Shown in pieces: positions 837-25,513 of a DNA stretch of 26,234 bases. The stretch is from the IMG/VR virus record IMGVR_UViG_3300031454_000254, positions 1 through 26,234 of that record; one strand, 5' to 3'. The notes beneath the pieces are model-generated. The model ran no database searches, was not told the origin of the DNA, and saw only the letters and a list, made by a program, of their open reading frames with translations. The translations under genes were made by a program, and so were the position numbers. Each line of letters starts with the position of its first letter. The stretch's first letter is position 1. Origin of the DNA: a virus (lineage: Duplodnaviria > Caudoviricetes).

Positions 837-838
837 CG

Positions 839-8035: not shown

Positions 8036-8193
8036 GCTGCCTCCCGAGCTGACGTCGATGACGGGGCAGGACCCAGCAGGGCGGCGACACTGGCGAGTAC
8101 CGCCGGGTCGTCGACCTGGCGTGGGAGCCCCTGACGGGTTCGACTGGCGAGGAGTCGGTCGACGTGATCGTCGAGGGGTGTGGGCTTCGGCAT
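8032..8193 (-). CDS. 53-aa protein, putative recombination directionality factor (absent from ORF track)
   Basis: MPKPTPLDDHVDRLLASRTRQGLPRQVDDPAVLASVAALLGPAPSSTSAREAA; GGAGAG RBS; stop overlaps helicase GTG; positional and sequence homolog of 18476-18607. Confidence 0.65.
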   Translation of the reverse strand: MPKPTPLDDHVDRLLASRTRQGLPRQVDDPAVLASVAALLGPAPSSTSAREAA

Positions 8194-8352
8194 GGCGATC
8201 TCTCCCGGGACATAGCTTCGCTAGGGGAGAGGACCGCTGAGTCCCCGCACTGAGTGCCTACCGGATCGATTACCCGCTGTGCGGGCCACCGCGATCCGGG
8301 CGGTGCCAGTTCTGCCGCGCCTGGTGCGCGATCTGAAATTACACGCTGGGGA

Positions 8353-8919
8353 TTAGTCGGTCAAGCGCACCGTGTGGCGACCCGTGATGATGGCGATGGC
8401 GAATTGGACGAGCAGCTCCGTGTGCGACTTGACCCCTCGGTATCGGCACTTCGGGAGCCGGCAGTCGAGCGCTATCCGGGGCACGTGCACCGTGTTCTCA
8501 CCCAGCACTTCTGGGAAGTCGTGCTCCGGGCACAGGGGGTTGGGGTGCGCGACCAGTGCAGGGCATCCGGGTTCGGCACAGACAGTGCGCCAACTCGTCG
8601 TCCCCCAGGTGGCAGGCGCCGCCACAACCAGTGCTCTCTCGACGTGCCCGGTCCCGTTCTCGGTGGCCGCGAGGTAGAGATGCCAATTGCCGTCGATCTC
8701 GATGGTGACCCTCACGAGCGGATGACCCTCCGGGCAGACGAAGGATCGCGCCGGTGGCCGAATGTGGACGTAGGGACGGGCACCGTCTCGCGTCTTCCCG
8801 ATGAATCGCTCGATGAACGGCGGGTAGTCGTACAGGGCTCGTTCGACCTCGGCCGCCGTGCGGTGGTGGAGGTCGTACCACTCTTGTGGCGTGCTGCCCG
8901 TGTTGCGAAGCATCCTCAC
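8353..8919 (-). CDS. Cys/His-rich hypothetical protein coupled to integrase
   Basis: GTG 8919 overlaps integrase TGA (alternative ATG 8913); CPEGH, CAEPGC, CPEH, CRLPKC motifs. Confidence 0.6.
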   Translation of the reverse strand: MRMLRNTGSTPQEWYDLHHRTAAEVERALYDYPPFIERFIGKTRDGARPYVHIRPPARSFVCPEGHPLVRVTIEIDGNWHLYLAATENGTGHVERALVVAAPATWGTTSWRTVCAEPGCPALVAHPNPLCPEHDFPEVLGENTVHVPRIALDCRLPKCRYRGVKSHTELLVQFAIAIITGRHTVRLTD

Positions 8920-10286
8920 GCCTTCCATTCGATGGTGATGCGGTCGAGGTCGACCCGCCCGCCGGCCCGCCGGGCCGGTGCAACGCTCACGGCTTCGATG
9001 ATGGCGGCGATGATGGTGCGGCGGTGGTCGACACCGAGGTCGGCCCAGTGTCGACGTAGGGCGCCCTTCACCCGGTACGCGTCGAGCGGTGTGGCTCGGG
9101 CGGCGACCCGTTCCTCGGCGGCGACGCGGCGAGCTTCGAGGGCCCTGCGGGCGGTTGCCCATTCGCCTCGGCCAATTTCTGCGGCGGCGAACATCTCGGC
9201 GAGCTCGTCGAGCCGACGGTGCACGGCGGCGAGGTCGTCCCGGGGGTCCTCGTCCTCGTCAGTCGAGGTGACGACAGCGGCGGCGAGGTCGTCGTTGTCG
9301 AGGGCGGCGAACACGGTCTCGACGATCAGGTCCTCCACCGGCTCGGCCTTGATCGTCGTGCCGTCGCAGCCCCCATGGCTGCTGAGGCACGCGTAGGCGC
9401 GGCCGTAGGGGCGGGGGGCGGCGACCATGGCGGCACCACACCGGCCGCACCGCAGGAGCCCCCCGGAGAGGAGGTACGAGCGGGCGGGGCGCGTGCGGGC
9501 TCGTGAACGGCTGCGGATGACGTGGCCCACGGACTCCCACGTCTCCCGGTCGATGATGGGCGCCCACACGGCGGGGAACGTCTCCCCGTCATGGGTGCGG
9601 AGCCCTGCCACGCGAGGCGACAAGAGCAGGGTCCGCAGGTGCGTGGTGGTCCACTTGGCGCCGGTCACGGTGGGCACCCCGCGGGCGGTCCAATCGTTCA
9701 CGATGGCGTACAGCGACTCGCCCGCAAGTACGCGGCGGGCGGCGTCACCGATGAGACGGGCTTCGCCGGGGTCGTGCGTGGTCCTGTCGGCACGGAACCC
9801 GAACGGTCGGTTTCCTCCACCGGACACGCGTCCCTGCTCGGCGAGCTCGCGATGCTTGCGGCGAAGCCGGCGCGACTTGTCTTCGGATTCCTTGCGTGCC
9901 ACGGCTCCCGTGATCCTCGCCATCAGCCGACCCTCGGGGGTCCCCAGGTCCACGTCTCCGGCAGTCACGGTAGCGACCTGGACCCGGTGGGCTTCGACCA
10001 CCTCGACGAACCGTTCGAGTTCGATGGGAGAGCGGTGGAGTCGGTCGGGGTGCCACGCGACGAGCACGTCGATCTTGTCGTGCTCGATGAGGTCCAACAG
10101 CCGGGCGTAGCCGGGCCGGTGCTTGCCGCTGTAGGCGGACAAGTCGTTGTCGACGAGAAAGTCGGCCACCTCCCATCCGCGCCGCTTACAGAGGGCCACG
10201 CAGTCCTGCCGCTGGCGCTCGACCCCGGCGCCGGTCCCCTCGGTGTCGCGTGAGATGCGGCTGTAGATGACGACGTGGGGAGGCAT
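8916..10286 (-). CDS. large serine recombinase (integrase of element 1)
   Basis: YSRIS catalytic motif, DNDLSA, RPGY, DRLHR, recombinase domain PFGF, zinc ribbon CGRCG..C..C, coiled coil. Confidence 0.96.
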   Translation of the reverse strand: MPPHVVIYSRISRDTEGTGAGVERQRQDCVALCKRRGWEVADFLVDNDLSAYSGKHRPGYARLLDLIEHDKIDVLVAWHPDRLHRSPIELERFVEVVEAHRVQVATVTAGDVDLGTPEGRLMARITGAVARKESEDKSRRLRRKHRELAEQGRVSGGGNRPFGFRADRTTHDPGEARLIGDAARRVLAGESLYAIVNDWTARGVPTVTGAKWTTTHLRTLLLSPRVAGLRTHDGETFPAVWAPIIDRETWESVGHVIRSRSRARTRPARSYLLSGGLLRCGRCGAAMVAAPRPYGRAYACLSSHGGCDGTTIKAEPVEDLIVETVFAALDNDDLAAAVVTSTDEDEDPRDDLAAVHRRLDELAEMFAAAEIGRGEWATARRALEARRVAAEERVAARATPLDAYRVKGALRRHWADLGVDHRRTIIAAIIEAVSVAPARRAGGRVDLDRITIEWKA

Positions 10287-10301
10287 AGCGTCAGATTACC
10301 A
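10287..10301 (-). promoter_or_regulatory. putative leaderless integrase promoter (extended -10)
   Basis: TGG-TAATCT on minus strand, 6 nt before ATG 10286; same geometry in element 2. Confidence 0.5.
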
Positions 10302-10310
10302 CAAGGCTCT

Positions 10311-10784
10311 CGACGCCATCTTCGTCAAGCGCCATGCGGCGGCGTCCGGCTACCACGACGAGGTCTTCCACGACGACGAGCACGTCGTGCGCACCCTCAC
10401 CAAGATCCTCGACGACGCCACCGGATCGCACCGGAAGCTCGACGCCTCCCAGGGGCTCCAGGACGCACAGCTCGACAACGGGTCGCGCCTGCACATCGTC
10501 CACGGCGACGTCGGACGTGACGGCCACGTGCTCGTGAACATCAGGAAGTTCACCGGCGTGGCCTTCCGGAGCCTGGCGGACCTCGTCGACCGGGACATGC
10601 TCAGCACGGCCGCCAGCTCGTTCCTCCGAGCGGCCGTCCGGTCCCGCCAGTCGATCGTCTTCGCTGGTGCCCCCGGCTCGGGCAAGACCACGATGCTGTC
10701 GTGCTGCTCGGCCGAGCTCGACCCGTCGCTCCGCGTGGTCACGGCCGAGGAGGTCTTCGAGGTCGACATCCCGCTCCCGAACGT
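10311..10784 (+). pseudogene. cpaF: internal fragment of CpaF/TadA pilus assembly ATPase, between elements 1 and 2
   Basis: DAIFVKR..DAQLDNGSRLH..NIRKF..Walker A GAPGSGKTT..Asp box VVTAEEVFE; no N-terminus; breaks after PLPNV. Confidence 0.92.
10774..10784 (+). repeat. left att site core of element 2
   Basis: CTCCCGAACGT, identical to 20980-20990, exactly where cpaF breaks. Confidence 0.92.
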
Positions 10785-10804
10785 CTTGGTAGGTGCATGA
10801 GCCA

Positions 10805-10861
10805 CGGTGGCCCGGCGCTCGACCTCGGCCATGCCAGGCGGGGGGAGCGTCCGGGCCACCG
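10805..10861 (-). terminator. long stem-loop after head operon of element 2
   Basis: cggtggcccgg-cgctc ... gagcg-t-ccgggccaccg. Confidence 0.55.
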
Positions 10862-10864
10862 GAG

Positions 10865-11188
10865 CTAGGCGGCGCGCCGCCGGTAGCGGTGGAGGACGGC
10901 CAGCTCGGGCAACGTCCAGCCTTCGAGGGTGCCGTAGCGGATCGCGTAGTCCCCGATCGACTCCGTGACGTTGTGCGTGGGGTTCTTCACGAGCCGGGCG
11001 GTGGCGGTGACGATCACGGCGGCCACGTCGGCTACCGGGTCCCCCGTCGTCGCGTCGAACCCCCGACCGCCGGTGTAGGCGCGCACGAACGCGGTCACGA
11101 GGGGAAGGTGGGTGTCGGCCAGGTCGGCCACGGTCAGGTCGTCGCGTTGGCCGAGGAAGTCGGCCACGTCTGTCCCGTAAGGGGTCAC
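10865..11188 (-). CDS. head-tail connector/adaptor protein
   Basis: 107 aa from GTG 11188; close homolog of 507-836. Confidence 0.75.
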   Translation of the reverse strand: MTPYGTDVADFLGQRDDLTVADLADTHLPLVTAFVRAYTGGRGFDATTGDPVADVAAVIVTATARLVKNPTHNVTESIGDYAIRYGTLEGWTLPELAVLHRYRRRAA

Positions 11189-11190
11189 GG

Positions 11191-12063
11191 TCAGATGGTG
11201 ATGCCGGTGAGGGTGACGACGGCCTCGGGGTTGAGGGGTGCGGCGTCGTAGCGGGCCACGACACGGATCGCCTGCTGGTCGTAGTCGCCGAACGTCTGGT
11301 CGAGGATCTTCACGGACGGCGCAAGGTCCCGGGCGACGGCGATCTGTGAGAAGTCGACGAGGGCGGCCCGGCCGGTCGGCGTCGCGCCGGTCGTGGCCGG
11401 CAGGCGGTTCGTGATCGTGACGCCATGGCCGAGGAGGCGGTACGCGCCGCCCTCCGTGGGGTCGGGCTGGATGAGGTACCGGCCGGTCGTGTCCTTCGCC
11501 TTGCGGAGCCGGACGAAGTCGCGGGAGGTCATCAGCCACCGGACGCGGGTCGGGTCGACGTTGGCGGCGAGCACGAGCCCTTCGGCGTCCTGGAGGTGGT
11601 CGAGGGTGAGCGCCCCGCCGACGGCGAGGGTCTGGGTGCCGGGGTAGGCGAACAGCCCTCGCGGCGTGGTGATCCCGTCGCCCGACGCGGAGAGGAACTG
11701 GGCGTCGAGCTTCGCTGCCACGTCCGAGACGAGGCGGGTGCGGAGGGCGGCGTCGAGGGCGACGACGGACTGGCGGGCCAGCTCGTTCGAGTAGCGGGTG
11801 AGGACCTTGACCGACTTCATGGTCGAGGGGAGGAGGGTCACCTCGTCGAAGGTGACGTCACGCTCGGGGATGAGTTCGTTCTCGCCGGTCCAGCCGGGGT
11901 CGGCGACGGCGGCGCCCATCTTCGGGAGGCGCAGCGGGCCCGCCGTGTCGAAGATGTGAGGGCCGGCGGCGAGGAAGACGGAGGCGGCGGCGAGGGGCTG
12001 CACGAGGACCGCGGAGACTTGCTCGGCGGTCAGCTCGGATGCGGTGACGGTGGATACGGCCAT
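11191..12063 (-). CDS. major capsid protein (HK97 fold)
   Basis: 290 aa, 5 substitutions versus 839-1711. Confidence 0.93.
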   Translation of the reverse strand: MAVSTVTASELTAEQVSAVLVQPLAAASVFLAAGPHIFDTAGPLRLPKMGAAVADPGWTGENELIPERDVTFDEVTLLPSTMKSVKVLTRYSNELARQSVVALDAALRTRLVSDVAAKLDAQFLSASGDGITTPRGLFAYPGTQTLAVGGALTLDHLQDAEGLVLAANVDPTRVRWLMTSRDFVRLRKAKDTTGRYLIQPDPTEGGAYRLLGHGVTITNRLPATTGATPTGRAALVDFSQIAVARDLAPSVKILDQTFGDYDQQAIRVVARYDAAPLNPEAVVTLTGITI

Positions 12064-12201
12064 GAGGGCGCCTTTCGATCGTGGGAGTGTTCACACGTTG
12101 GGCGCCCGGCCCGTCCGTCAGCCGGCCGCCAGGGCCGTCTACCTACAGCATACCCCCCGGGGGTGACAGCGGGTTCGGCACCGGGGCGCAAGTCGGTGGG
12201 T

Positions 12202-12510
12202 GAGGCCGTGCCATCAAGGCGATAGGTGAGGCCGCCGGGCTAACCCATGGGTTAGTCCGGGTGACCGAGCGCGAGGCCCGTGCCATCAAGGCGATAGGTG
12301 AGGCCGCCGGTGTCTCAGATCTGAGACACGTGCCGGTGTGCAATACGTTGCACACGACATCACCATTCGCGAGATCGCCGATGCTGCCGGTGTGTCGCCC
12401 ATGGGTGACATCGCGGGTTCCACCAAGGTGGAAATCACCGAACGGGAAGCCCGGGACATCAAGCCTCATCTCCAGCAGGTCACCGAGATGGTGCGTGAAG
12501 CGCATGGAGA
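12202..12510 (+). repeat. array of five variable ~18-bp palindromes with semi-conserved coding-like flanks; includes an exact 33-bp direct repeat (12206-12238, 12278-12310)
   Basis: palindromes at 12239, 12311, 12337, 12393 and 12417; four follow GCCGG, the fifth follows GCGG. Confidence 0.85.
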
Positions 12511-12565
12511 ACGACCACAGCCTCCGGTCAGGGTGCGACGGGCACGACGTCCCGGTGCCGAGGTC

Positions 12566-13015
12566 TTAGCTGGCGCGCGCCCGGAGGATGGCCGCCAGGT
12601 TGGCGGGGTCGTCCGTGCGGGTGGCACCTTGGCCGATGTCGCCATGGGGTCGGCGGCGGGCGAGGTGGGGGCGTTGGGCGACGAGGGCGCGGGCGGCGGT
12701 GACGATCCTGTCGGCATCGGGGTAGCCGTCCTCGTCGAGCACGTCGGCCTCGTCGGTGAACATGAGGAGGTCGGCGGGGTCGGCGAGGTGGTCGGCGGCA
12801 GCGGAGCGGATCGTTGTCTCCACGAGGCGGCGGTGCAGCTCGTCGACCCGCCCGGCCCGCTGGCGGTAGCGGGCGGACTCGTCGCGGAGCTGTTGCACGT
12901 AGCTGCGGGGGAAGGTGTCCGGCTCGGTCGTCTCGTCGCCGGCCCCCTCGGTTGTCTCCTCCCTGGTCGTCTCCTCGGCGGCGTCGTCGGTCGTCGGGTC
13001 GTCGTGTTCGGCCAT
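12566..13015 (-). CDS. capsid scaffolding protein
   Basis: ATG 13015 with AAGGAG RBS; homolog of 2321-2794. Confidence 0.8.
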   Translation of the reverse strand: MAEHDDPTTDDAAEETTREETTEGAGDETTEPDTFPRSYVQQLRDESARYRQRAGRVDELHRRLVETTIRSAAADHLADPADLLMFTDEADVLDEDGYPDADRIVTAARALVAQRPHLARRRPHGDIGQGATRTDDPANLAAILRARAS

Positions 13016-13026
13016 GGCGTGCTCCT

Positions 13027-13563
13027 TCATCGGATGGTGGGGATCGGGGTGCAGGTGCAGCCCTTGTGCGTGGGCATCGGGTGGTCGGCTCGGAACACGC
13101 GCCCGCCGCGGGCCCACCACTGGCAGAGCTGGCACGCCTTGGCCGACAACCCGCGGGTCCAGCCGGTGACGTGGGGCGAGGCGCTCATCCCGGTGCTGTA
13201 GGCGTTCGCCGCGGCGGTGAGCGGTTCGGACCGGCCAAGGCGCGCAACACGAGCCGACGGGTCCGGGGTGTCGTCGAGGGCCTCCCGTAGCGTCCTGGCG
13301 GCCCGCCGGAGCCGGTCGGGGTCGGATGCCGGGGGGACGATGCCGAGGGGCGCCACGGGACGTCTGAGGGCCACGGTGACAGCGGCGGCGAGTCCGAGGT
13401 CGGCCACCGCCGCGGCTCGACCGTTGGCTCGGGAGACGACGGCGGCGAGGTAGGCGTCGAACCCGTCGTCAGTCACCTCCCCGGCCTCGTGGCGCAGGTA
13501 CAGGTTGACGGCTGCTTCCTCGGTGGCGCCGGCCAGGGCGGTGAGGGTGTCCCGGTAGGTCAC
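13027..13563 (-). CDS. minor head / MuF-like protein
   Basis: homolog of 2803-3339; ACQLC..HKGCTC. Confidence 0.72.
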   Translation of the reverse strand: MTYRDTLTALAGATEEAAVNLYLRHEAGEVTDDGFDAYLAAVVSRANGRAAAVADLGLAAAVTVALRRPVAPLGIVPPASDPDRLRRAARTLREALDDTPDPSARVARLGRSEPLTAAANAYSTGMSASPHVTGWTRGLSAKACQLCQWWARGGRVFRADHPMPTHKGCTCTPIPTIR

Positions 13564-14891
13564 GGCAGGAGGTCCGCCAGGTTCACGCCGGCCGCGTCGA
13601 GGGCTTCACCGCGCCGGGCGGCTCGCACCCGTTCGATCTGCGCGGGGGTGTAGCCGAGCTGGGCGAGGGCTTCGCTCACGGGGAGGATGCCGGCGGCCAC
13701 GAGCTTCGAGGCGGCGTCCGCCGTCTGTGCGGGGGTCCGGGTCTCCGGGTTGTCCCAGACGGTCTCGATGTCGATGTCGATGCCGGCCGGGTCGGTCCCG
13801 TCGCGGACGGCGACAATGAGGCGGGCCACGTCTCCCCACGCCTGGCCGAAGGTGCGTTGCCTGGCGATGGCACGAGCGACGAGGGATGCTTCGGCGGACC
13901 GGATCGCGTCCGCACTCGGCGGCTGGTCTCCGTTGAGCCCGAGGTAGTGGGCGGGGAGCCCGGTCACCGCGCCGATCTGCTGAGTGATGACCGCGGCGAG
14001 GTCCGAGTAACCGTCGAGGCGGGTGGCGTCGAACTGCCCGAACTTGGTCTCGGGCGACTCGGATTGCCAGACACGGCCCAGCTCGTCACTGAACGGGTTC
14101 ACGGGTTGGCCGGCGGCGTCCTCGAGGATCTCGAGCCCGGTGACCCACCGGCGGGGCCGGGCGTAGAACTCGCTCGTGACCATGGCGTCGGACATGACCT
14201 TGTTGAGTGCGTCGGCGAGGTCGAGCACGTCCGCCATCTCGGAGACGCCATCGACGTCGAGGAGGCGGCCCCGGTTCACGATCGGGACCACCGGGACCGT
14301 GCCGAGCGGGTTGGGGATCGTCTCGACCACGTGCCAGCCGGTGAGGGGGATGGCGCCGGCCTCCACGACGTTGGATTCGGAGGTGTACCGCCGGATCACG
14401 TCGGGCTCATAGACGACGGCGTGCGCCTTCCCGCCGGCCGCCCAGCGCTTCACGGCCGCGGTGACCTGTCGGGAGGCGGGGTCGTGGGCGACGGCGACCT
14501 GACGGGCCGACTCGACGGTGACCCGAGGGCCGGTGGGCCCGGCCCACACGATCACGAATGAGCGGCCGTAGACGAGGGCGTCGACGTGGGCTTGCCCGGC
14601 GCCGTCCTCCATCCCGTTCGCACGCCACGAGCGCCACAGGGCGGCGTCAGGGGCGGCGTCGGGGCCTTCGGTGCGGAACCCGGTCACGGTCAACCTCTCC
14701 GCCAACGAGAGGACCGCCAACCGCGGGTAGTTGACGGCGAGGACGCGGAGCCGGTCGGCCAGCGCGGCACGGGCGGTGGGTGCGAGGAAGGCGGCGGGTT
14801 GCTCTCCCCGGAAGTAGGCGTCGAGCCGGGCCAGGGTGGGGACGGCCTCGTCGATCTTGGCGCCGAGGGTTGCGAGGTGTGCGGTGCTCAT
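13560..14891 (-). CDS. phage portal protein (SPP1 gp6-like)
   Basis: 443 aa; homolog of 3336-4661. Confidence 0.92.
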   Translation of the reverse strand: MSTAHLATLGAKIDEAVPTLARLDAYFRGEQPAAFLAPTARAALADRLRVLAVNYPRLAVLSLAERLTVTGFRTEGPDAAPDAALWRSWRANGMEDGAGQAHVDALVYGRSFVIVWAGPTGPRVTVESARQVAVAHDPASRQVTAAVKRWAAGGKAHAVVYEPDVIRRYTSESNVVEAGAIPLTGWHVVETIPNPLGTVPVVPIVNRGRLLDVDGVSEMADVLDLADALNKVMSDAMVTSEFYARPRRWVTGLEILEDAAGQPVNPFSDELGRVWQSESPETKFGQFDATRLDGYSDLAAVITQQIGAVTGLPAHYLGLNGDQPPSADAIRSAEASLVARAIARQRTFGQAWGDVARLIVAVRDGTDPAGIDIDIETVWDNPETRTPAQTADAASKLVAAGILPVSEALAQLGYTPAQIERVRAARRGEALDAAGVNLADLLP

Positions 14892-16348
14892 CGGAAGGTG
14901 ACCACCTTTCTGCCGGTGGTGCGGCGGTTGGCGTGCCAGGCGGCACGATCGAAGGCGACGATGGCGGCGACGGCCGCGTCGATCTTGCGGGGGCTGTTCC
15001 GCTTGTCCTTAGACACGAGGTCGCCGAGGGCGGTCGACTTCGCGACGCAGTGCGCCACGTGTGCCGACAGGCGCTCGTCTCCGTCGTGGGTGAGGGTCCC
15101 GGCGGTGACCGCCGCGAACATGCGGTCGGTGGCTGGGGCCATGCGCTGGGCGGCGGCGGTGTTCCATTCGAGGACGCGGCGTTCCCCGTGTCGTTTCGCC
15201 CACGTCTCGATCTCGGTCCGCCACCCCCACGGGTCGGCGGCCAGCTCGATCACGTCGTACTGGTCGAACATGGCGTCGACCGTGGCGTCGACCTCGTGGC
15301 GCGGGACCCTCCACCGGGGGTCTCCGTCGTTGGCCCACACGTCGACGACGAACACGAACCCGTCGATCGTGCAGCCGACGAGGGCGGTCGAGTCCCCGGA
15401 GGCGGAGCCGTCGAAGGCGGCGACGATCCGTTCCCCCGGCCCCGCAATGCGGGCCCGGTCGGCGCAGGTGTCCCACGTCCCCCACGGGAGCCACGAGTCA
15501 GCCTGGCCGACCCATTGGCCGAGCCGGAACCGTCGGAACGCCGGCTCCCTCGTCGTCTTCACAGTCGCCCGGAGCGCGTCGACGTGCAGGAAATCGCCCA
15601 ACGCTGGGTTGGCGACCTTCCAGGCGTCCTCGTCGTCCACGGCGCAACCGTCGGGGGCGGCGAACTCCCGGTAGACGAACCCGTCGTCGTTGCCGGCGCG
15701 AGCGTGCTCCACCAGACGCCACATGATCGACTCAGGGGTGTCGGCCGGTGTCGAGATGGCGAGCGTGAGCGAACGGTCCCGCTTGCCCGCCGCTGAGGTG
15801 ACGGCCTCCCACACGGCCTCGGTGACCACGTGCAGCTCGTCGACCACCATCAGCGTCGGGTCCCACCCCTGCAACGCGCCCGGCTCGGCGGGGAGGGTCC
15901 GCAGCTCAGAGTCGGTGTGGGGGACGTACAGCCGGTCCTGGTACACCTGCACCTGCTCCGCGAGACGCGGTTCGAGCTCGACCATGCGGCGCACCGCCCG
16001 GAACACGTGCCCCGCCTGCCGTTCGTCCGACGCAACGATGCACACCTGAGCGCCCTCCACCTCATCGGCGAAGAGCCCGTACGCGCCGAGCACAGCGGCG
16101 AGTCCCGTCTTCCCGTTCCCCCGCGGCATCGACAACAGCCCTTGGCGGGGGCGGGGACCCTCCGGGTACAGGGCCGCCACCAGGTCGAGCTGCCAGTCGC
16201 GGAGCCGGAACGGTTCCCTCGCACCCGTCCCCTTCGGGACCCTCAGGTACTCCGCGGCGAACGCGTCCACCCGACGCCACCCCGGGCCAGGAAGGGCCGA
16301 GAAGTCCAACGGCGGGGCCGTAACCGCCCGCTTCGGGCCGCCCTTCAC
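14888..16348 (-). CDS. terL: terminase large subunit
   Basis: GTG 16348 overlapping HNH stop; PRGNGKT, VVDELH, KIDAAVA. Confidence 0.94.
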   Translation of the reverse strand: MKGGPKRAVTAPPLDFSALPGPGWRRVDAFAAEYLRVPKGTGAREPFRLRDWQLDLVAALYPEGPRPRQGLLSMPRGNGKTGLAAVLGAYGLFADEVEGAQVCIVASDERQAGHVFRAVRRMVELEPRLAEQVQVYQDRLYVPHTDSELRTLPAEPGALQGWDPTLMVVDELHVVTEAVWEAVTSAAGKRDRSLTLAISTPADTPESIMWRLVEHARAGNDDGFVYREFAAPDGCAVDDEDAWKVANPALGDFLHVDALRATVKTTREPAFRRFRLGQWVGQADSWLPWGTWDTCADRARIAGPGERIVAAFDGSASGDSTALVGCTIDGFVFVVDVWANDGDPRWRVPRHEVDATVDAMFDQYDVIELAADPWGWRTEIETWAKRHGERRVLEWNTAAAQRMAPATDRMFAAVTAGTLTHDGDERLSAHVAHCVAKSTALGDLVSKDKRNSPRKIDAAVAAIVAFDRAAWHANRRTTGRKVVTFR

Positions 16349-16743
16349 CCTGTCCCCCCCGACAGTGACCGGGATTCTGCCTTCCCCCACGGGTCCCGGC
16401 GCTGGTCGTGAGGGTCATCCCCCGTGGGTCGTGCGGCGCCGGCGGCTCGGTTGCACGGTCCGCACAACACCTGCACGTCTTCGAGGCGCACGGCCAGCCC
16501 GGCTTCGTGGCGTTCCCAGGCGGCGGGGGTGTGGTCGGTCTGGAGGTCGTCGGTGGCGCCGCAGTGGAGGCACCAGGGCTGGAGGCGGCGGGCTCGCTTG
16601 CTGAGCCGATCCCAGGAGGTCGAGTAGCCGCGAATGCGTGCGCTCGGCTTCGCGTCGTGGCGTGCTTCGAAGGTGCGAGCGCACGTCCAGCAGCGCGTCT
16701 CCTCGCTCGGTTCTCCGCACGACAGGCAGGGTCGGAGGGTCAC
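16345..16743 (-). CDS. HNH endonuclease (packaging-associated)
   Basis: RGYSTSW, WCLHCG..DLQTDH..CGPCN. Confidence 0.85.
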   Translation of the reverse strand: MTLRPCLSCGEPSEETRCWTCARTFEARHDAKPSARIRGYSTSWDRLSKRARRLQPWCLHCGATDDLQTDHTPAAWERHEAGLAVRLEDVQVLCGPCNRAAGAARPTGDDPHDQRRDPWGKAESRSLSGGTG

Positions 16744-16919
16744 TGGTCGCCCTCCTGCTTCGGCAGGAACGCGAGCGCGACTTCACGGGCGCCGGTCACG
16801 GGCCAGACGGGGCAGGTGTCGGAGTGATCGACCTCGATGCTGAGGGTCCTGCCGCGCCACACCTCGTGGATGGTCGAGTTGCAGTCGTCGCACTTGAGCC
16901 ATGCACCGCGGTTGGTCAC
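16740..16919 (-). CDS. 59-aa putative zinc-binding protein (absent from ORF track)
   Basis: MTNRGAWLKCDDCNSTIHEVWRGRTLSIEVDHSDTCPVWPVTGAREVALAFLPKQEGDQ; GTGA overlaps on both sides. Confidence 0.7.
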   Translation of the reverse strand: MTNRGAWLKCDDCNSTIHEVWRGRTLSIEVDHSDTCPVWPVTGAREVALAFLPKQEGDQ

Positions 16920-18172
16920 TGGTCCTCACCTCCCTCCCTGTCACTCCTGTCACTGGTGTCACTCTCCCTGGTCAAGGGGGGTGTTTCGAGTGACAGGTGA
17001 CGGGAGGCGGTGTCACTCACCTCGTCGTGCGGGTCAGGTGGAGTGACAGGAGTGACAGGGGTGACAGGTGACAGGGGGACCATGTAGTGCCCGGCCCCGT
17101 CGGTGTCGAGCTGGCCGGCGTCGACCATGCGCCGACACGTCTGGCGTGCCGTGGCTTCCTTGATCCCGAGGCGCTCGGCCAACACCTTCGGGGTCAGTGC
17201 CTCCTCGTCGCGCAACAGGTGAAGGATGGCGCGGCGGGTGTCGCCGAGGTCGTAGTCGTCGGCTGGGCCGTCGAGCATGGTCCACACGCCACCCGTGAGG
17301 GACAGGGGGATCTTGGCTTCGTCCACGTCCCGGCCGGTGATGTTGAGCGTGGCGTCGGCGCTCCCCCGGCTGCGGGAGAGGACGGCGATGGTGTCGGCGG
17401 CTGCGGCGAGCCCGTTCGTCCCGCTCACGGTGTCGAGGAAGTCTTCCGACGCGGCCTTGCGGGTGTGGTGGACGACGACGATCGCGCAGTCGTGGTCGTC
17501 GGCCAGGTCCTTGAGCTTCACCATCGCCCGGTAGTCGGCGGCGTACGCGTTCTCCCGTTCGCTGACGGTCCCTCGGATGCGGGCGAGGACGTCGACGGCG
17601 ACGAGACGGCACGACGGGTGCGCGTCGAGCCACTGGTCGAGCTGGTCGGCGCCACCCTCAGGGAACACGGGCCAGTCGGTGGCGAACGTGAGCCCGGCGG
17701 GGGGAGGGTCCCCTTCGAGGACGATCCCGAGACGGCTCTGCAAGCGTCGCGGGGTGTCCTCCAGCGCCAGGTAGAGGGCTTCCCCCTGCTCGACCTTCAC
17801 CTTGCCGAGGGCTCGGCCGCCGGAGCTGACGGCGACGGTGAGGGCGAGCGCGAGCCAGGATTTGCCGAGCTTGGGTGCCCCGGCGAGGAGGGTGAGCCCG
17901 GAGACGATCACACCGGGTACTGCCCAGCGCGGCTCGGCGAAGGTGGCGGCCATGAGGTCGACCGCGGACCACGCCGAGGGGACCGCGGTCCCCTGGTGCA
18001 GATCTGCGCCAGGGTCCGATACGAGCGCGGGACGAGGCGGGGAAGCCTGTGGCACGATTGCCACAAGCTTGGCGGCGCGCTTCGCGTCGGCGGCGCGGCG
18101 TTGGGTCTCGGCTCGCTGCTCCGCGGTGCGTAGCGAGCCGAGGGCGGGGTACGCGAGGGGTTCAGCCGACAC
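16916..18172 (-). CDS. AAA_25/RepA-type helicase with C-terminal winged HTH
   Basis: GTG 18172 with GGAG RBS; Walker A GAPKLGKS, YLALED, VAVD, VVHHTRK, SGTNG, ITGRD. Confidence 0.88.
   Translation of the reverse strand: MSAEPLAYPALGSLRTAEQRAETQRRAADAKRAAKLVAIVPQASPPRPALVSDPGADLHQGTAVPSAWSAVDLMAATFAEPRWAVPGVIVSGLTLLAGAPKLGKSWLALALTVAVSSGGRALGKVKVEQGEALYLALEDTPRRLQSRLGIVLEGDPPPAGLTFATDWPVFPEGGADQLDQWLDAHPSCRLVAVDVLARIRGTVSERENAYAADYRAMVKLKDLADDHDCAIVVVHHTRKAASEDFLDTVSGTNGLAAAADTIAVLSRSRGSADATLNITGRDVDEAKIPLSLTGGVWTMLDGPADDYDLGDTRRAILHLLRDEEALTPKVLAERLGIKEATARQTCRRMVDAGQLDTDGAGHYMVPLSPVTPVTPVTPPDPHDEVSDTASRHLSLETPPLTRESDTSDRSDREGGEDQ
16939..17073. repeat. TGTCAC/GTGACA iteron cluster, putative origin of element 2
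   Basis: TGTCACT at 16939, 16948, 16957 (9-bp period) and 17011; (A/G)GTGACA at 16989, 17042, 17051, 17060, 17067. Confidence 0.8.
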
Positions 18173-18479
18173 GCTCCACCTCCGTGATCCGGTAGGCGCG
18201 CGCGAGGTAGTCGGCGTCTTCGAGCACGATTCGTTCGAGGTAGTAGCGGGTCCACGTCTGGTCGCAGCGTCGGCACCGCCAACGGAGGTCGTCGACCAGT
18301 TCGGCGGTCCCCCCGTTGCAGTCGAGGCGGCGGCACTGGGGGCACCGGAAGCGGACGCCGGCCTCGTCGTCGAGGAAGGCGAACACGTGGTCGCCGGCCA
18401 CGGCCTCGGCGAGGGTGATCGTCGGTAGGTCGCGGACAAGCGCGGCGGGGTCGCCGAAAGACACGGGGGCGGCGTTCAC
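18162..18479 (-). CDS. zinc-ribbon hypothetical protein
   Basis: CPQC..CRRC; coupled to neighbours; no counterpart in element 1. Confidence 0.7.
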   Translation of the reverse strand: MNAAPVSFGDPAALVRDLPTITLAEAVAGDHVFAFLDDEAGVRFRCPQCRRLDCNGGTAELVDDLRWRCRRCDQTWTRYYLERIVLEDADYLARAYRITEVERVG

Positions 18480-18607
18480 GCTGCCTCCCGTTGCGATCGT
18501 GCTGGGCTTAGCAGGGCGGCGAGGCGGTCGACCTGCTCAGTGGTGAGCGGCGGCGCTTCGGCGACGAGATGGGCGACGTGATCGTCGATGGACGTGGACT
18601 TCGGCAT
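18476..18607 (-). CDS. 43-aa putative recombination directionality factor (phiRv1 Rv1584c-like)
   Basis: MPKSTSIDDHVAHLVAEAPPLTTEQVDRLAALLSPARSQREAA; APPLTxEQxxRLAxLL motif as recalled for the phiRv1 RDF; GAGG RBS. Confidence 0.72.
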   Translation of the reverse strand: MPKSTSIDDHVAHLVAEAPPLTTEQVDRLAALLSPARSQREAA

Positions 18608-18687
18608 GGCCGGACCTCGAAAGGTCGCCGGCGCCCAACCGGATCGTTTCGGCCCCTCTCGGCCGTGGACTCTCCCGCGAGGAGCAG

Positions 18688-19542
18688 CTACTCCGAAGCG
18701 GTCCAATCGATGGTACCCAACATGCGGGCCGAGCAGTTGTATCCCAGCGGGGTCTTCTTCTTCCGAGCCTCCTTCACCATCTGGCGCATCGTCGGGTAGT
18801 CGATGGCGGCGTTGAAGTGTCGGGGGCACCCGAGGACGAGCCACGGCGGGAAGCCGTCACCGGGCTTCGGATCGTTGAGGTTCACGATCGACGGGAGGAG
18901 CCGCACACTCCCGTTGTCGAGCATCTCGACCCACGCGAGCTCCATCTGCACCATGTTCTCGGCGATAGCGTCTCCCATCTCACGGAGCCGCATCGCTGTG
19001 TCGAGGTGGGTGGCGATCGCCTCCTTGAACGGCAGCATCTGCCCGGAGAGGTAGTAGCCGCGAGGGGTGTGCCAGACACGGCCGATTTCCTCCCAGCAGA
19101 GCCCGGCCGTGTTCGGCGATGAGCAGAACACCTTCACGTCAGGTTCCCGATCGCCGATCTGTTCCACCATCCAACCGTCGAGCCGGGCACGTCCCGCCAC
19201 CGGGTTCTCGTTCGCAAAGCGGTTCCTCTTCTTCTCCATCGCCGCATGGCGTTCGTCCTCCTCTCGTTCGAGGAGGTAGTCGTAGAAGTCGGCGTCAGGC
19301 TTCACGATCGGTGGCCGGTCGTCCACCGGGAGGTATGGGCCGGCGTCCACAAACCTGTAGTAGGCCGGCCCGCCGTCCGGGCCGACGTAGCAGTTGTACG
19401 TGCCGAAGCGCTCGCCGAGCCGGATGTAGCGCGGGTCCTGCATCATCTCCACGTCGGCGCCCAGGTCCCGGCTCAACATCTCCGTGCGGTGCCTACGGGC
19501 GGGCTGGTCCCACCCGAACTCATCTACGTCGTCCACGGTCAC
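18688..19542 (-). CDS. hypothetical protein coupled to integrase
   Basis: 284 aa from GTG 19542 overlapping integrase TGA; C..C..CPRH in the C-terminal half. Confidence 0.65.
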   Translation of the reverse strand: MTVDDVDEFGWDQPARRHRTEMLSRDLGADVEMMQDPRYIRLGERFGTYNCYVGPDGGPAYYRFVDAGPYLPVDDRPPIVKPDADFYDYLLEREEDERHAAMEKKRNRFANENPVAGRARLDGWMVEQIGDREPDVKVFCSSPNTAGLCWEEIGRVWHTPRGYYLSGQMLPFKEAIATHLDTAMRLREMGDAIAENMVQMELAWVEMLDNGSVRLLPSIVNLNDPKPGDGFPPWLVLGCPRHFNAAIDYPTMRQMVKEARKKKTPLGYNCSARMLGTIDWTASE

Positions 19543-20954
19543 TGCCTCCAGTCGATGGTGATTCGTTCGGGGTCGAACTTGTTGCCGGCGCGCGTGGTGG
19601 GAGCAATGCGAATTCGGGTCACCACGGTCGCAATGATGGCGCGGCGGCCTTCGAGGTCGAGGTCGTCCCACCTGTCGCGAATGTTGCTCAGGTCCGGCGT
19701 CGCGTGAGTCGTCTGGGTCTGCTCCACCACCTGTGCCTGTAGGCGTTGGAGGTCGTTGTCGAGGACGCCACGAGCCGCACGCCACTCTGCCGCGTCTATC
19801 TCCCGGTGGGCGAACATCTCTGCCATCTCGGTGCGGCGAGACTCCACGGCGGCGATCTCGTCGACTGGTGTTTCCGTTGCGGCGTTCCGGCGCTTGCGTT
19901 CGATCGCCTCGGCGAGCTCAGGTATGTCGATCAACCTGAGGACGGCCTCGGTGACGACTGCATCGAGTTGGGGCGCGTTGATTCCGCATCGTCCGCAACC
20001 GCCCCGATCGACGGAGCACACGTAGCGCTCATAGCGGTGACCCCGGTTGTGGCTGGGGCGGGTGGTCATTCGGACCTCGCAGCGGCCGCAGTAGAGGAAC
20101 CCGGATAGCAGGTACTTCCTTGCCGTGATCCCAGCAGCACGGTTCCGGCGCTGGTCTTTGAGGAGCGCTCGCAGGCGGACGGTCTGCTCGGGCGTGATGA
20201 TGGCGGGCCACACGGCGGTACTAACGATCCGCCCGTGGTGCTCGCGCTGCCCGGAGATGCGCCCGGACATGAGCAACCGCTTGACGGTGGTGGTCGACCA
20301 GTGTGCGCCGGTGACGGTCCGCACCCCCCGCTCGGCCCACTCGTTCACGATCGACCGCAGGGACTGCCCAGCGAGGACGCGGGCGGCGGCGTCCCGGATG
20401 AGCTCAGCCTCGTCCTCTCGGACGGTCACCCGGTCGCTCTCGAAGCCGAACGGTCGGCGTCCACCTCCTGGCACCTGACCAGTCTCGGCCAGCTCCACGT
20501 GCTTCCGGCGGATCCGCTCCGCCTTGTGCTCGGACTCGTGCCGGGCAACAGCGCCGTGAATGCGGGCCGTCATGCGGCCGGCGGGGGTGGCGAGGTCGAG
20601 GTCGCCTGCGGTGACCGTGGCGACCTCGGCGTGAGCCCGCTCGATGGTGTCGATGAAGTCCTCCAGCTCGCGCGGGGAGCGGTGCAGTCTGTCGGGATGC
20701 CAGGCGACCACGGCTTCGACCGTCCCGTCGCCGAGTGCGTCGAGGAGGGCGAGGTACCCGGGTCGGCGCTTCCCCCGGTACGCGCTCATGTCATTGTCGG
20801 CGTACACGGCGCCGACTTCCCAGCCGAGGCGCTTGCACAAGGCGCGAGCGTCCTGCTCCTGACGGGTGACGCCGAGCCCGGCGCCCCCTCGGTCCTGGCT
20901 TATGCGGACGTAGACGGCGGCTCGACGGGCGGTTGCAGTGGCGGTCGAAGTCAT
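19539..20954 (-). CDS. large serine recombinase (integrase of element 2)
   Basis: YVRIS, DNDMSA, DRLHR, PFGF, zinc ribbon CGRC..C..C. Confidence 0.96.
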   Translation of the reverse strand: MTSTATATARRAAVYVRISQDRGGAGLGVTRQEQDARALCKRLGWEVGAVYADNDMSAYRGKRRPGYLALLDALGDGTVEAVVAWHPDRLHRSPRELEDFIDTIERAHAEVATVTAGDLDLATPAGRMTARIHGAVARHESEHKAERIRRKHVELAETGQVPGGGRRPFGFESDRVTVREDEAELIRDAAARVLAGQSLRSIVNEWAERGVRTVTGAHWSTTTVKRLLMSGRISGQREHHGRIVSTAVWPAIITPEQTVRLRALLKDQRRNRAAGITARKYLLSGFLYCGRCEVRMTTRPSHNRGHRYERYVCSVDRGGCGRCGINAPQLDAVVTEAVLRLIDIPELAEAIERKRRNAATETPVDEIAAVESRRTEMAEMFAHREIDAAEWRAARGVLDNDLQRLQAQVVEQTQTTHATPDLSNIRDRWDDLDLEGRRAIIATVVTRIRIAPTTRAGNKFDPERITIDWRQ

Positions 20955-20966
20955 GCATGCACTCTA
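20955..20966 (-). promoter_or_regulatory. putative leaderless integrase -10 element inside the attP arm
   Basis: TAGAGT (20966-20961), 6 nt before ATG 20954. Confidence 0.5.
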
Positions 20967-20979
20967 ACCGACGTTCGTT

Positions 20980-20990
20980 CTCCCGAACGT
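20980..20990 (+). repeat. right att site core of element 2
   Basis: CTCCCGAACGT direct repeat. Confidence 0.92.
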
Positions 20991-21114
20991 GGCGTCGATG
21001 CAGACCCGTCCGGCCCGCTCCGACCGGCACGCCATCGACCTGCGCCACCTCGTCGCCGGCTTCTTGCGCATGGCGCCCGACGTCGCCATCGTCGGCGAGG
21101 TCCGGGACCGAGAG
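20980..21114 (+). pseudogene. cpaF: second internal fragment of CpaF/TadA (Walker B region), truncated again
   Basis: LPNVASMQTRP..IDLRHLV..LRMAPDVAIVGEVRDRE; the His-box region (TxHA) does not follow. Confidence 0.9.
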
Positions 21115-21499
21115 GGACTACCCCGCGATCGTTACCCACGGTGCGAGCCTGTGACCAGGGCGAACGCACCCGACGACGTCGATCTCCCGCATACCCCGGC
21201 GTTCGTGGGACTCCTCGATTCTCGACTGCGCGGCCCGTTCCAGGTCACCGCTGCGTGCCCGTGCGTACCGAGCAGATCGGCAGTTCCGGGCGCGGCTCAA
21301 GTAGCGGCCCGGTGGGTCGCGATCCGCCGCGGCGGTCTGCGACTCCAGAACGACACGTCGGTTGGCACGGGGATCCTCTCGTGCGTAGCGGCGGTCGATG
21401 CTGGGCACGTCGGCGTTCAGGATCGTGTTCCCAATGCTGTCGTCAGCCGGCAGAGCGTGGTGCCACGATGGCCTCGATGATGACCCCGTGGGTTGCACG

Positions 21500-22222
21500 A
21501 TGACGGTGCGACTCGTCGCGCTCGCGTTCGACGCCTTGGAGCCAGTGGAACTCGCACGATTCTGGGCGCACTCCCTGCGCTGGCAGATCCGAGAGGCCGA
21601 CGAGTTGCGCGTCGAGCTCGTGCCGACGGACGACACCAGCTTCGACCTCCTGTTCCGGCCGGTTGCACACGCGAAGGTGGGCCGCAACCGGATCCACTTC
21701 GATCTCACGACCACGTCGCTCGATGACCAGAGCGACACGGTGGCAGAGCTCTTGGCGGTCGGTGCGAGACACATCGACATCGGTCAAGACCCCGACGACG
21801 CCCATGTCGTGCTCGCCGATCCCGAGGGCAACGAGTTCTGCATCATTGAGCCTGAGAACCGCTTCCTCGCGAGCTGTCCTCGCCTTGGGGCGATCAACTG
21901 CGACGGCACGCGGGCCCTCGGGTGCTTCTTCGCCGAAGCACTCGGATGGCCGTTGGTCTGGGATCAGGAGGAGGAGACGGCGATCCAGGCACCGGATGGC
22001 ACGGGTCCGAAGATCACCTGGAGCGGTCCTCCGCTCATGCCGATGTCCGGTGAGGAGCGGTTCCACTTCCACATCGCCCCGACGCCCGGATCCAGCATCC
22101 AGGCCGCGCTCGATCACCTTCTCGGGCTCGGAGCGACGCTCCTCGACATCGGTCGCGCCTGCCACGGCGCGATCGTGCTCGCTGATGTCGACGGCAACGA
22201 GCTCTGCCTCGTCGAGCCATAG
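21500..22222 (+). CDS. two-domain VOC/glyoxalase-like protein
   Basis: LARFW..L.W, NRIHFDL, VLADPEGNEFC, second domain ending LADVDGNELC. Confidence 0.9.
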   Translation: MTVRLVALAFDALEPVELARFWAHSLRWQIREADELRVELVPTDDTSFDLLFRPVAHAKVGRNRIHFDLTTTSLDDQSDTVAELLAVGARHIDIGQDPDDAHVVLADPEGNEFCIIEPENRFLASCPRLGAINCDGTRALGCFFAEALGWPLVWDQEEETAIQAPDGTGPKITWSGPPLMPMSGEERFHFHIAPTPGSSIQAALDHLLGLGATLLDIGRACHGAIVLADVDGNELCLVEP

Positions 22223-22299
22223 CGTGCCTACCCTTCGGGTCGTGGCATGCGGGCTTGCCGAGGCAAGATCCAAGTCAACCGAACGTGCAGCAGGCCCCG

Positions 22300-23610
22300 T
22301 CAGCCGTTGCTGTACACCGCGCCGCCAAGCACTGGTCCCGAATCTTGCCACCCGCCCCACGCGATGAGCTCGGATCCGGTCCACACAAGTTGTACGCCCG
22401 ACCCGATCGCGCCGTCGCGCATCGTGGGCAAGCCGACCCACTGATCGTCGCTTACGACGTACGCGTGAACGGCAGGCCCGCCGTCCGATCCGCCCGTCGA
22501 CGACGTGATCAGGAAGACGACGCCGTCCCCGCTCGAGGTCGGGGAACTCCATGCCGATCCGCCGGACGGCGCCGCAGCTGTGCGCCGCCACTCCGTGGTC
22601 GCGATGTCGAACGCAACACCATGCTCGGGTTCGCATCCACCAGACCACGTGAAGATGGTTGATCCCGGGGCCTCTCCGATACCGGCCGGTCCGCCGGTCA
22701 TCGAGCACCGGGAGTCGGGGAAGTTGGGCGGAGGGGGCAGTTCTCGCCACTCGTCGCTCGCAGCATCGTACTGGCCGAGCCGCTGTCCACGGAAGACGTA
22801 GAGCGAGTCTCCGACGGTCAGCGTCACTTCGCTGCCGCCATCGCCGCTCCACGGCGCCGGCACATCGCCCAGCTCGGACCACGAGTTCGTGACCGGGTCG
22901 TAGCTCGCCGCTGTGGGATCGTGGATCACGCTGTCGATGGGACAGCACTGCGTGACGCCGCCCCACACCAGCATCGCTTCGTTCACCATGTCCGCTACGG
23001 CTCCGCTCCTTGCCTGCAGTGGCCCGGGCGCGATGAGCCGCCACGAGTCGGTGTTCGGGTTGTAGGCAGCACCGTCAGCAAAGAACTCGTTACCGCCTTC
23101 AGGTGAGGCGCCACCCCAGTAGACGACCTCGGTCCCCGTCCAAACGGCTGCCATCCTCTGCCGGTCGCTGATCGGCGCCGGGGGCAACGATCTCCACGTC
23201 CTGTCCGCTGGCCGGAACGCGGCGGAGGGAGTCCCCCACACGACGAACTCCTCGCCTGTCCAGACCCCCGACGACCGGCCCGTGACACCTTCGGGTGGCG
23301 CCGGAATCTCGTCCCAGTCACCCTTCGACCAGTCGACGGCACCCGTTGGGTCGGGCTCCGCCGTGGTCGCCGGGGTCACAGACGTGCCGTCGGCTGTGTC
23401 CACTTTCGTGGAGGAGTCACCTCCGAGCGCTGCCCAGGCGCCGCCGGCCACGGTCACCGCTGAGACCGCTGCGGCAGCGGCGAGCATGCGCCGCCGGTTC
23501 ACGTGTCGCCCAGGGCGACGCCCCGGGGGGCGTGCGACGTCCCGGATCGGGATCGGGTCGTCGATGTCTTCCACCCAGGACCGGATCTGCGCTTCGAGAT
23601 CGTCGGTCAC
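22300..23610 (-). CDS. membrane-anchored Kelch/beta-propeller protein, probable anti-sigma factor
   Basis: short cytoplasmic N-terminus, RRR plus TM helix, repeated VWTGxExxxWGG / AAYxPxTxSW blades; GTGA overlap with sigma gene. Confidence 0.82.
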   Translation of the reverse strand: MTDDLEAQIRSWVEDIDDPIPIRDVARPPGRRPGRHVNRRRMLAAAAAVSAVTVAGGAWAALGGDSSTKVDTADGTSVTPATTAEPDPTGAVDWSKGDWDEIPAPPEGVTGRSSGVWTGEEFVVWGTPSAAFRPADRTWRSLPPAPISDRQRMAAVWTGTEVVYWGGASPEGGNEFFADGAAYNPNTDSWRLIAPGPLQARSGAVADMVNEAMLVWGGVTQCCPIDSVIHDPTAASYDPVTNSWSELGDVPAPWSGDGGSEVTLTVGDSLYVFRGQRLGQYDAASDEWRELPPPPNFPDSRCSMTGGPAGIGEAPGSTIFTWSGGCEPEHGVAFDIATTEWRRTAAAPSGGSAWSSPTSSGDGVVFLITSSTGGSDGGPAVHAYVVSDDQWVGLPTMRDGAIGSGVQLVWTGSELIAWGGWQDSGPVLGGAVYSNG

Positions 23611-24080
23611 AGCGTTACCCCCAACCGTTGACGCAGTGTGGTCATGCCGCGCTCGACATGGCTTTGCACTGTGGACTTCGTGACCCCGAGAAGATCGGCG
23701 GTCTCGGCGAAGGACCAGCCGTACCCGTGGACCAGGACGACCGCTGTCCGTTGCTTCGTCGGCAGGCCGGCCAGTGCAACAGGAAGACCCGGCTCACACC
23801 GTGTCTCCGCTGCGCTGACGGGCGCCCGGAGCCAGCCTTCGCGCCTGCGACGCGTCTGGGACTGTCCCACCCGGTACAGGTAGCCGACCTTGTTCTCCAT
23901 TGACCGCACTTGGTCCCAGTTCTCCCACGCCCAGGCGAGAGCAGCCGCGGCCGCCTCGCGTCCGGCTTCCGGCCCGTACCTCGCGACGAGAGCGGCGCGG
24001 ACCCGAGGCTCCACGGCCTCGTACCAGTCCTCGAACTCGTCTGCCGTCTCCGCCACCGGCCGCACCTCGCTCGCGAGCAT
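23607..24080 (-). CDS. ECF RNA polymerase sigma factor
   Basis: FEDWY..AAAAALAWAWENW..GYLYRVG; region 4 LPTKQRTAVVLVHGYGWSFAETADLLGVTKSTVQSHVERG. Confidence 0.9.
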   Translation of the reverse strand: MLASEVRPVAETADEFEDWYEAVEPRVRAALVARYGPEAGREAAAAALAWAWENWDQVRSMENKVGYLYRVGQSQTRRRREGWLRAPVSAAETRCEPGLPVALAGLPTKQRTAVVLVHGYGWSFAETADLLGVTKSTVQSHVERGMTTLRQRLGVTL

Positions 24081-25463: not shown

Positions 25464-25513
25464 GTCGGCGTTCTCTCACCGGAGGTCGCTGGTGCGGGCG
25501 GTGCTCACGACGG

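Follow-up and report, generated by a model that had tools for sequence, protein, structure and literature searches.

A Tad-pilus ATPase gene interrupted by mobile elements at three separate attachment-like sites

The 26,234-bp stretch of DNA analyzed here (the window) is the entire virus-type record IMGVR_UViG_3300031454_000254 of IMG/VR, in which two pieces of the tight adherence (Tad) pilus ATPase gene of an Acidimicrobiia host, cpaF, lie among three mobile elements, numbered 1 to 3 from left to right. In a tblastn comparison, the intact relative P0001 (448 aa) matches the window as two consecutive internal pieces, residues 94–254 at 10303–10785 (96.9% identity) and residues 251–298 at 20980–21123 (89.6% identity); piece 1 itself is 98% identical to P0001. 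Both pieces match the Pfam family T2SSE, the top match of piece 1 among solved structures is CpaF (E = 2.7e-13), and the closest relatives are annotated as CpaF of Acidimicrobiales. The gene thus has the features of a Tad/CpaF ATPase, a T2SSE ATPase nearest to CpaF, and the tblastn, structure and Pfam matches agree with the sequence-only reading that preceded this analysis, in which one cpaF survives as two consecutive internal pieces. It falls below all NCBIfam cut-offs, scoring 175 bits vs 373 for TIGR03819 TadA, and on its sequence is best placed in a subfamily separate from the latter. Piece 1 carries Walker A, and piece 2 a motif that we take to be Walker B.

All three breaks in cpaF are attachment (att)-like junctions. 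Comparison of the window with intact genes and with other broken copies places 2-bp cores of GA at codon D97 (site 1), CT at L251 (site 2), and GA at E295 (site 3), and in the spliced gene 594 bp lie between the first and last core, in keeping with the earlier claim of three independent sites within ~600 bp. The sequence CTCCCGAACGT is present twice, at 10774–10784 and 20980–20990. The arms flanking element 2 form an imperfect inverted repeat (15 of 28 positions, ungapped), which fits the expectation for a serine-integrase attP, and the site-2 arms are likewise repeated in other genomes (20/28 in G149 and 19/28 in G314). Overall, an inverted repeat about a 2-bp core was found in four other genomes at 17–26 of 28 positions, with 10/28 ungapped in G031. 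At site 3, the arm following the E295 codon is almost identical in G276, G249, L157, and L158, and G276 has an inverted copy of it (26 of 28 matching) before the cpaF 3′ piece; the third island, previously called only probable, is therefore real, since its arm recurs in other genomes.

The surroundings of the window are partly visible in other assemblies. Contig L159 (120,089 bp), found by a pattern scan, is identical to the window over 15,138 bp, reaches 733 bp farther to the right, and ends there in sequence that presumably is the start of an IS3-type transposase; neither the window nor L159 contains a partner arm for site 1 or site 3. A search for short CpaF proteins returned P0259 (98 aa, 90% identical), a 5′ piece that stops at site 1, as had been expected for the left-hand end of the gene. 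Its record is a 120,089-bp contig with four sources in common with the integrase of element 2 (int2), and from this length and these common sources we infer that P0259 lies on the host contig upstream of element 1. Scans of viral contigs with the integrase of element 1 (int1), int2, and a CpaF alignment returned distant or unrelated loci only, and two junction patterns gave 0 matches. Logan contigs of run X1 span all four junctions in the window without a mismatch at a depth of ~20, no listed piece covering the whole stretch; X1 is possibly the source sample, so that the crossing of the junctions tests the assembly only. No empty-site joint is present among the 15 listed of 87 joints, in contigs that drop rare variants. 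Runs X2 and X3 hold small shares, and an X3 contig over 20980–21144 has too little flank and was not used.

The same breaks recur in other genomes, which makes them more than chance. Among 401 genomes of the order Acidimicrobiales, ~209 have an ortholog-level match to cpaF (hand count); 65 genomes, mostly those with weaker best matches, were followed up, and 40 stretches were fetched. In at least 12 of the ~209 (again a hand count), the gene is broken at one of four sites and foreign DNA follows: at site 1 in one genome (G021), at site 2 in four (G149, G314, G318, and G071), at site 3 in five (G276, G249, G031, G195, and, within 10 nt, G035), and at a fourth site near residue G178 in two (G068 and G381). 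The unpublished genome G392 adds one more break at site 3. All three sites of the window are thus reused among relatives. Contigs that end at or near a site were left out of the count (G039, G361, G060, G309, G393, G370, G207, G107, G336, G312, and G206), and genomes that keep a 5′ stub only, such as G125 and G324, score like paralogs and are missed by the survey. A piece of G035 (residues 257–298) considered as a case of double occupancy was rejected, as its ends ~40 codons before site 3 fit assembler overlaps, and two of five pattern matches (G297 and G195:C50) lie outside cpaF. The occupants differ in kind: site 1 is used by a tailed prophage and by a satellite, and site 2 by satellites, by prophage-like elements, and by an island that brings tad-like genes of its own.

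Truncated CpaF proteins show a similar picture. With residues 1–100 as the query and proteins of ≤245 aa, a range in which sites 2 and 3 cannot show, 92 of the 120 listed short N-terminal CpaF proteins have a foreign tail by our own rule; 49 of these tails begin at residues 94–98, 12 at 90–93, 7 at 113, 12 at 178–180, and 12 elsewhere. Among 120 listed longer CpaF matches, four (P0002, P0094, P0104, and P0110) run to site 3 and then into a foreign tail, and one ends at site 2. A further site is probable at residues 87–93 (L155:2–1400 of G337, and the ends of C28 and C87 in G324), where the duplicated block is longer and a tyrosine integrase lies alongside; in L155 this integrase adjoins a cpaF piece that begins at residue 87. 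Residue 113, with seven proteins, is another candidate site.

Both int1 and int2 have the Resolvase, Recombinase, and zinc ribbon domains of large serine recombinases, and they are 47.7% identical. In a quick tree of 56 integrases, int1 and the site-1 integrase of G021 fall on the same side of one branch (Shimodaira–Hasegawa-like approximate likelihood ratio test, SH-aLRT, 94), as do five site-2 integrases including int2 on another (SH-aLRT 87), with many background proteins of unknown site falling within the site groups. The identity of int2 to the four other site-2 integrases is 50–55%, and site-1 and site-2 integrases are 44–50% identical to one another. Both site-4 integrases lie outside these groups (28–37% identity), and in the site-3 island of G031, at 3.8 kb from the right end, lies a serine recombinase of 687 aa that is 26% identical to int2. 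By these sequence comparisons the integrases fall, according to site, into no fewer than four serine lineages. The earlier proposal of divergent integrases at different sites is supported in that lineages sort by site in the tree; int1 and int2 themselves belong to kindred lineages within a single family, and distance (26–37%) is seen only for the integrases of sites 3 and 4.

Table 1. Features of the window, with the basis of each assignment where one is recorded
Feature	Position	Strand	Basis or remark
cpaF piece 1, residues 97–254, with Walker A	10312–10784	+	structure match, Pfam, tblastn
cpaF piece 2, residues 251–295, with Walker B region	20980–21113	+	Pfam, tblastn
Site 1 right junction (attR-like), element arm and core GA at 10312–10313 (D97)	10284–10313	+	core same in G021/L001
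Site 2 left junction (attL-like), core CT at 10774–10775 (L251) and element arm	10774–10803	+	its arm pairs with the arm ahead of 20980 as an imperfect inverted repeat
Site 2 right junction (attR-like), core CT at 20980–20981	20950–20981	+
Site 3 left junction (attL-like), core GA at 21112–21113 (E295) and conserved arm	21112–21143	+
Element 1, right part; left end beyond window	1–10311	-	Pfam, PHROGs
Element 1 head-tail adaptor	507–836	-	weak match, E 7e-5
Element 1 capsid	839–1711	-
Element 1 scaffold	2321–2830	-
Element 1 VG15-like	2803–3339	-
Element 1 portal	3336–4661	-
Element 1 TerL	4658–6160	-
Element 1 AAA_25 primase-helicase	6704–8035	-
int1, large serine recombinase, 456 aa	8916–10286	-	Resolvase, Recombinase, Zn ribbon
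Element 2, complete, 10.2 kb	10776–20979	-
Element 2 adaptor-like	10865–11190	-	adaptor match scored on element 1 copy
Element 2 capsid	11191–12063	-
Element 2 scaffold	12566–13135	-
Element 2 portal	13560–14891	-
Element 2 TerL	14888–16390	-
Element 2 HNH	16345–16743	-	HNH scored on element 2
Element 2 AAA_25-helix-turn-helix replicase (open reading frame)	16916–18439	-
int2, large serine recombinase, 471 aa	19539–20954	-	Resolvase, Recombinase, Zn ribbon
Element 3, left part	21114–26234	.	cargo, Pfam
Element 3 glyoxalase	21398–22222	+
Element 3 Kelch protein	22300–23610	-
Element 3 extracytoplasmic function (ECF) sigma	~23607–24230	-

Elements 1 and 2 share 82–90% DNA identity over their packaging modules and resemble satellites that encode a capsid but have no tail; neither Pfam nor PHROGs matched a tail or lysis gene among the open reading frames scanned, some small frames being outside the scan. 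Element 2 has much of the gene set of a capsid-forming phage-inducible chromosomal island (cf-PICI), with integrase, primase-replicase, capsid, portal, TerL, HNH, and a weakly matched head-tail adaptor, and, within the same scan, neither tail nor holin. Neither element is classed as a cf-PICI proper, and element 2 as cf-PICI-like only, because small terminase, head-tail connector, and AlpA/MerR/Stl regulator had no match among the scanned frames. Element 3 is a cargo island whose integrase would lie beyond the contig. A 38-nt direct repeat lies between the capsid and scaffold genes of element 2 (12202–12310), and inverted repeats are found at the 3′ ends of both replicase genes (16937–17068 and 6723–6797); these are possible origins.

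Several of the other broken loci deserve description in their own right. Multiple copies of the site-3 arm in G249 (C34, C75, and C135) and G031 (C40 and C83) suggest tandem arrays of islands at site 3. The 8.8-kb site-2 element of G071 (L133:435–4745) encodes a small terminase together with a restriction-modification pair of the XhoI type, and this genome may hold a tandem at site 2 or two alleles. The site-2 element of G314 (L185:970–8614) brings its own tad-like cluster, with a T2SSE paralog (31%), T2SSF, and TadE, while interrupting the host cpaF. At the right end of the G021 prophage (L121/L001:9980–10003), and in P0043 and P0106, the arm of the element brings in an in-frame start immediately before D97, from which CpaF lacking its first 96 residues could be made. 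In three loci (L017:8155–10001, L075:7219–10001, and L125:2703–5579), a cpaF 5′ stub is followed by cargo and then by a second gene start, a duplicate of 91–97% identity; in L017, whose stub stops at site 1 and whose cargo includes a PIN-domain gene, the second copy is complete, as though cpaF had been regained by the host. Four cpaF 5′ stubs, three ending at site 1, are present in G125 (C6 and C15; L249, L251, and L252), and no cpaF 3′ part was found in that genome. G248, considered as a second multiply cut gene, was rejected when its piece (G248:C1:24735–24902, residues 200–255) proved to be an orphan that ends at site 2 inside an island; the island sits at a gene that reads as acyl-CoA dehydrogenase-like.

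In intact genomes cpaF belongs to a conserved block of SAF, MinD-like, cpaF, tadB, tadC, flp-like, and tadE-like genes. This Tad operon is documented in the intact relatives only, by Pfam matches to SAF and T2SSF, a weak CpaB match, and conserved gene order, with the flp and tadE labels resting on size and motif in place of a Pfam match. In two of the 401 genomes (G324 and G125), a pattern search finds a fusion, at site 1, of the 5′ end of cpaF to the final codons of a LysM-like gene (G324:C87:28–71, L250; G125:C6:15000–15043, L249). In L059:50–5986, which is 88% identical to G324, the two halves are separated by 5.9 kb that holds the remainder of cpaF along with tadB to tadE, and no match to this block was found in G125 or G324; the fusion is thus a precise deletion of ~5.9 kb including the tad block. 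The motif CCCCGAC is common to site 1 and to the corresponding site in the LysM-like gene. Core host genes follow the junction in G324, and an origin of the LysM-like tail as an arm carried by an element was discarded for both genomes because host genes follow. Of the 120 listed short CpaF proteins, 18 have a tail matching the 3′ end of a host gene 4–8 kb downstream of cpaF, and 8 of 42 intact loci with enough flank have the LysM-like tail motif. Of seven copies of the downstream gene tested, one has a LysM domain above the Pfam cut-off and three have it weakly. The site-1 integrase may make this deletion, perhaps via two integrated copies; the alternative is deletion by microhomology in place of the integrase.

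A profile built from seven site-1 and site-2 integrases gave 59 matches in 40 of the 401 genomes, with at most four candidates scored per genome, and five of these are seeds. Among 48 non-seed flanks read, three touch cpaF (G381, G068, and the orphan piece in G248), and two cut comM (G061 and the unpublished G147). The int1/int2 family is therefore no pure cpaF specialist. Two loci, a row of four serine integrases in G130 (C1:262436–271800) and G139:C1:29366–30685, adjoin an excisionase-like helix-turn-helix gene that normally flanks the tad operon, and both genomes are without this cpaF.

The window is best explained by the entry of three mobile elements at three separate attachment sites in a Tad-pilus ATPase gene, likely via site-specific serine integrases. 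Each integrase lineage would have evolved a private site in intact hosts, so that the elements would not compete and could stack. The cuts separate the N-terminal domains, Walker A, Walker B, and His box of the ATPase, and because any one cut does so, the first insertion would kill the pilus. A host no longer transforming would retain later arrivals, and elements would accumulate; because a second or third insertion gains nothing from an already dead gene, their co-residence would reflect separately evolved site choices. In some lineages, recombination of site 1 with its downstream look-alike would remove the whole pilus block. We give an even chance to selection against transformation as the driving force, by which breaking a probable DNA-uptake pilus stops the host from curing its elements by transformation. 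This reading is supported by the recurrence of the breaks, the very different elements on shared sites, the convergence of at least four serine lineages, the cutting of comM by the same integrase family, and the published enrichment of competence and T2SSE-family genes among serine-integrase targets (figures below). In addition, comEC lies 16–52 kb from cpaF in all seven genomes that have both on one long contig, and transformation of Micrococcus luteus requires Tad genes, according to the portion of PMC4322843 available.

A number of observations weigh against selection on transformation. DNA uptake by this Tad system is putative, comEC is also present in four of five genomes without an intact ortholog, and its proximity to cpaF may be ancestral gene order. 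Triple occupancy was found in the window only; neither the 3′ end of cpaF nor an integrase of element 3, both foreseen to the right in the sequence-only reading, is seen in the window or the next 733 bp, where L159 stops; and G248 shows that a cpaF piece can travel inside an island. The remaining non-seed integrase flanks are an fpg-like gene end (twice), yebC (twice, one Pfam-tested), and the tad-locus helix-turn-helix gene (twice), the rest being single or too short. Finally, conservation in cpaF far exceeds that of the other genes in its operon, with 32% of 40-nt windows at ≥0.85 conservation vs ≤1% in five neighbours.

The last two points suit a neutral landing pad, in which cpaF is chosen as a class-wide conserved, dispensable gene whatever its pilus does. 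In 80 intact-cpaF loci there is no serine integrase and, judged by span length, no large internal insert in the other operon genes, and the four sites lie at the 58th–76th percentile of cpaF conservation windows, which is above the median yet off the conservation peaks. Neutrality would, however, have to accommodate at least four lineages and a probable tyrosine integrase within ~620 bp of one gene, as well as the strikes on comM; published serine-integrase targets are moreover enriched for T2SSE-family and competence genes (15 vs 2, odds 6.4, false discovery rate 0.03, in the accessible part of PMC10083194). We regard the neutral pad as possible but less likely; selection against transformation is plausible, and the use of a conserved, dispensable gene fits too.

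Removal of a receptor would also give the elements a benefit, if the pilus admits phages and cutting cpaF blocks superinfection. Tad pili are phage receptors in Caulobacter, and several occupants are prophages or capsid-encoding satellites. Satellites, however, depend on incoming or resident helpers, the site-3 occupants look like non-viral cargo islands, and the comM insertions do not fit, which leaves this explanation improbable. A host-controlled switch, by which cpaF would be made whole again through programmed excision in certain conditions, as sigK and spsM are, has precedents (PMC5025042 and PMC5499854, in the parts available), and if element 2 left site 2 precisely, the reading frame of intact relatives would be regained there; yet three excisions would be needed together, occupants vary between genomes of which most are intact, and elements 1 and 2 retain replication and packaging genes, making a switch very unlikely. 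Equally hard to credit is that the pieces are displaced, carried by the elements or joined in a chimeric contig away from the host locus. The orphan piece of G248, in an island at another gene, sets an example, the position of the 5′ piece is deduced, and the 3′ end is not in view. The pieces of the window are nonetheless collinear, abut at the core, and are 90–98% identical to the intact relative; P0259 ends at site 1 in a 120,089-bp record with the sources of int2, its back-translated tail agrees with the arm of site 1 at 10 of 16 positions, several of which are degenerate, and a second assembly spans every junction.

A broader and only tentative version of selection against transformation takes cpaF to be the motor of the Acidimicrobiia DNA-uptake pilus, targeted at no fewer than five private att sites by satellites, prophages, and islands alike, with the site-1 integrase also excising the Tad block via the LysM look-alike. 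If so, block excision would end uptake for good and could move pilus genes on an excised circle, and integrase hotspots would flag competence machines in uncultured lineages. The analysis would add Tad pili, and a mostly uncultured class of actinobacteria, to the conflict of mobile elements with natural transformation, and suggests which of several tad clusters merits testing as a DNA-uptake pilus. It also offers matched att sites and integrases within 600 bp, through which shifts of site choice along one gene can be followed, and a repeated precise deletion of an entire pilus operon anchored on an att site.

Known systems share parts of this arrangement. Staphylococcal cassette chromosome (SCC)-type islands and others form tandem arrays at one site; the site-3 islands resemble the former in their inverted arms, internal serine recombinase (G031), and tandem copies (G031 and G249), a likeness drawn without comparing the G031 recombinase to Ccr models, and differ in disrupting their target gene. 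Heterocyst nif genes hold several developmentally excised elements. The skin element of sigK and SPbeta in spsM likewise split a gene by serine-recombinase elements, whereas those of cpaF show no sign of fixation or programmed excision. The element phiRv1, which we take to be a similar system, is listed beside PICIs. Capsid-forming PICIs (PMC10085698) and candidate PICIs of mycobacteria that carry a capsid gene and a serine integrase (PMC10654092) are, in the text available, like element 2 in their ~10-kb size and their integrase, primase-helicase, HNH, TerL, portal, capsid, and head-tail adaptor, element 2 differing from cf-PICIs in the unmatched genes given above. Mycobacterial satellites in the accessible part of PMC12822802 have a tape measure gene, unlike elements 1 and 2.

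Integrase targeting of competence genes and of the T2SSE ATPase family is already known. No printed account of a multi-site Tad hotspot, of triple occupancy, or of block deletion was found, in a search of mainly open literature with partial supplements that leaves their absence unproven; the available portions of PMC13626063 and PMC12884075 do not mention 'CpaF' or 'pilus', and the supplement text of PMC10083194, possibly incomplete, has 0 occurrences of 'CpaF' and 'TadA'. According to the accessible part of the review PMC12378983, elements insert in comYC, comGA, comFA, comEC, comM, pilB, and pilQ. The likeness lies in integration within a pilus or competence gene, comGA encoding a pilus ATPase of the same Pfam family; that part of the review names no Tad or cpaF target and sets the Flp/Tad pilus aside, whereas cpaF here is entered at several sites, three at once. 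Durrant et al. (PMC10083194, as available) describe distant integrases converging on one gene, with T2SSE enriched among targets, as here; their worked example is one of many integrases at one site, whereas in cpaF many sites are occupied together.

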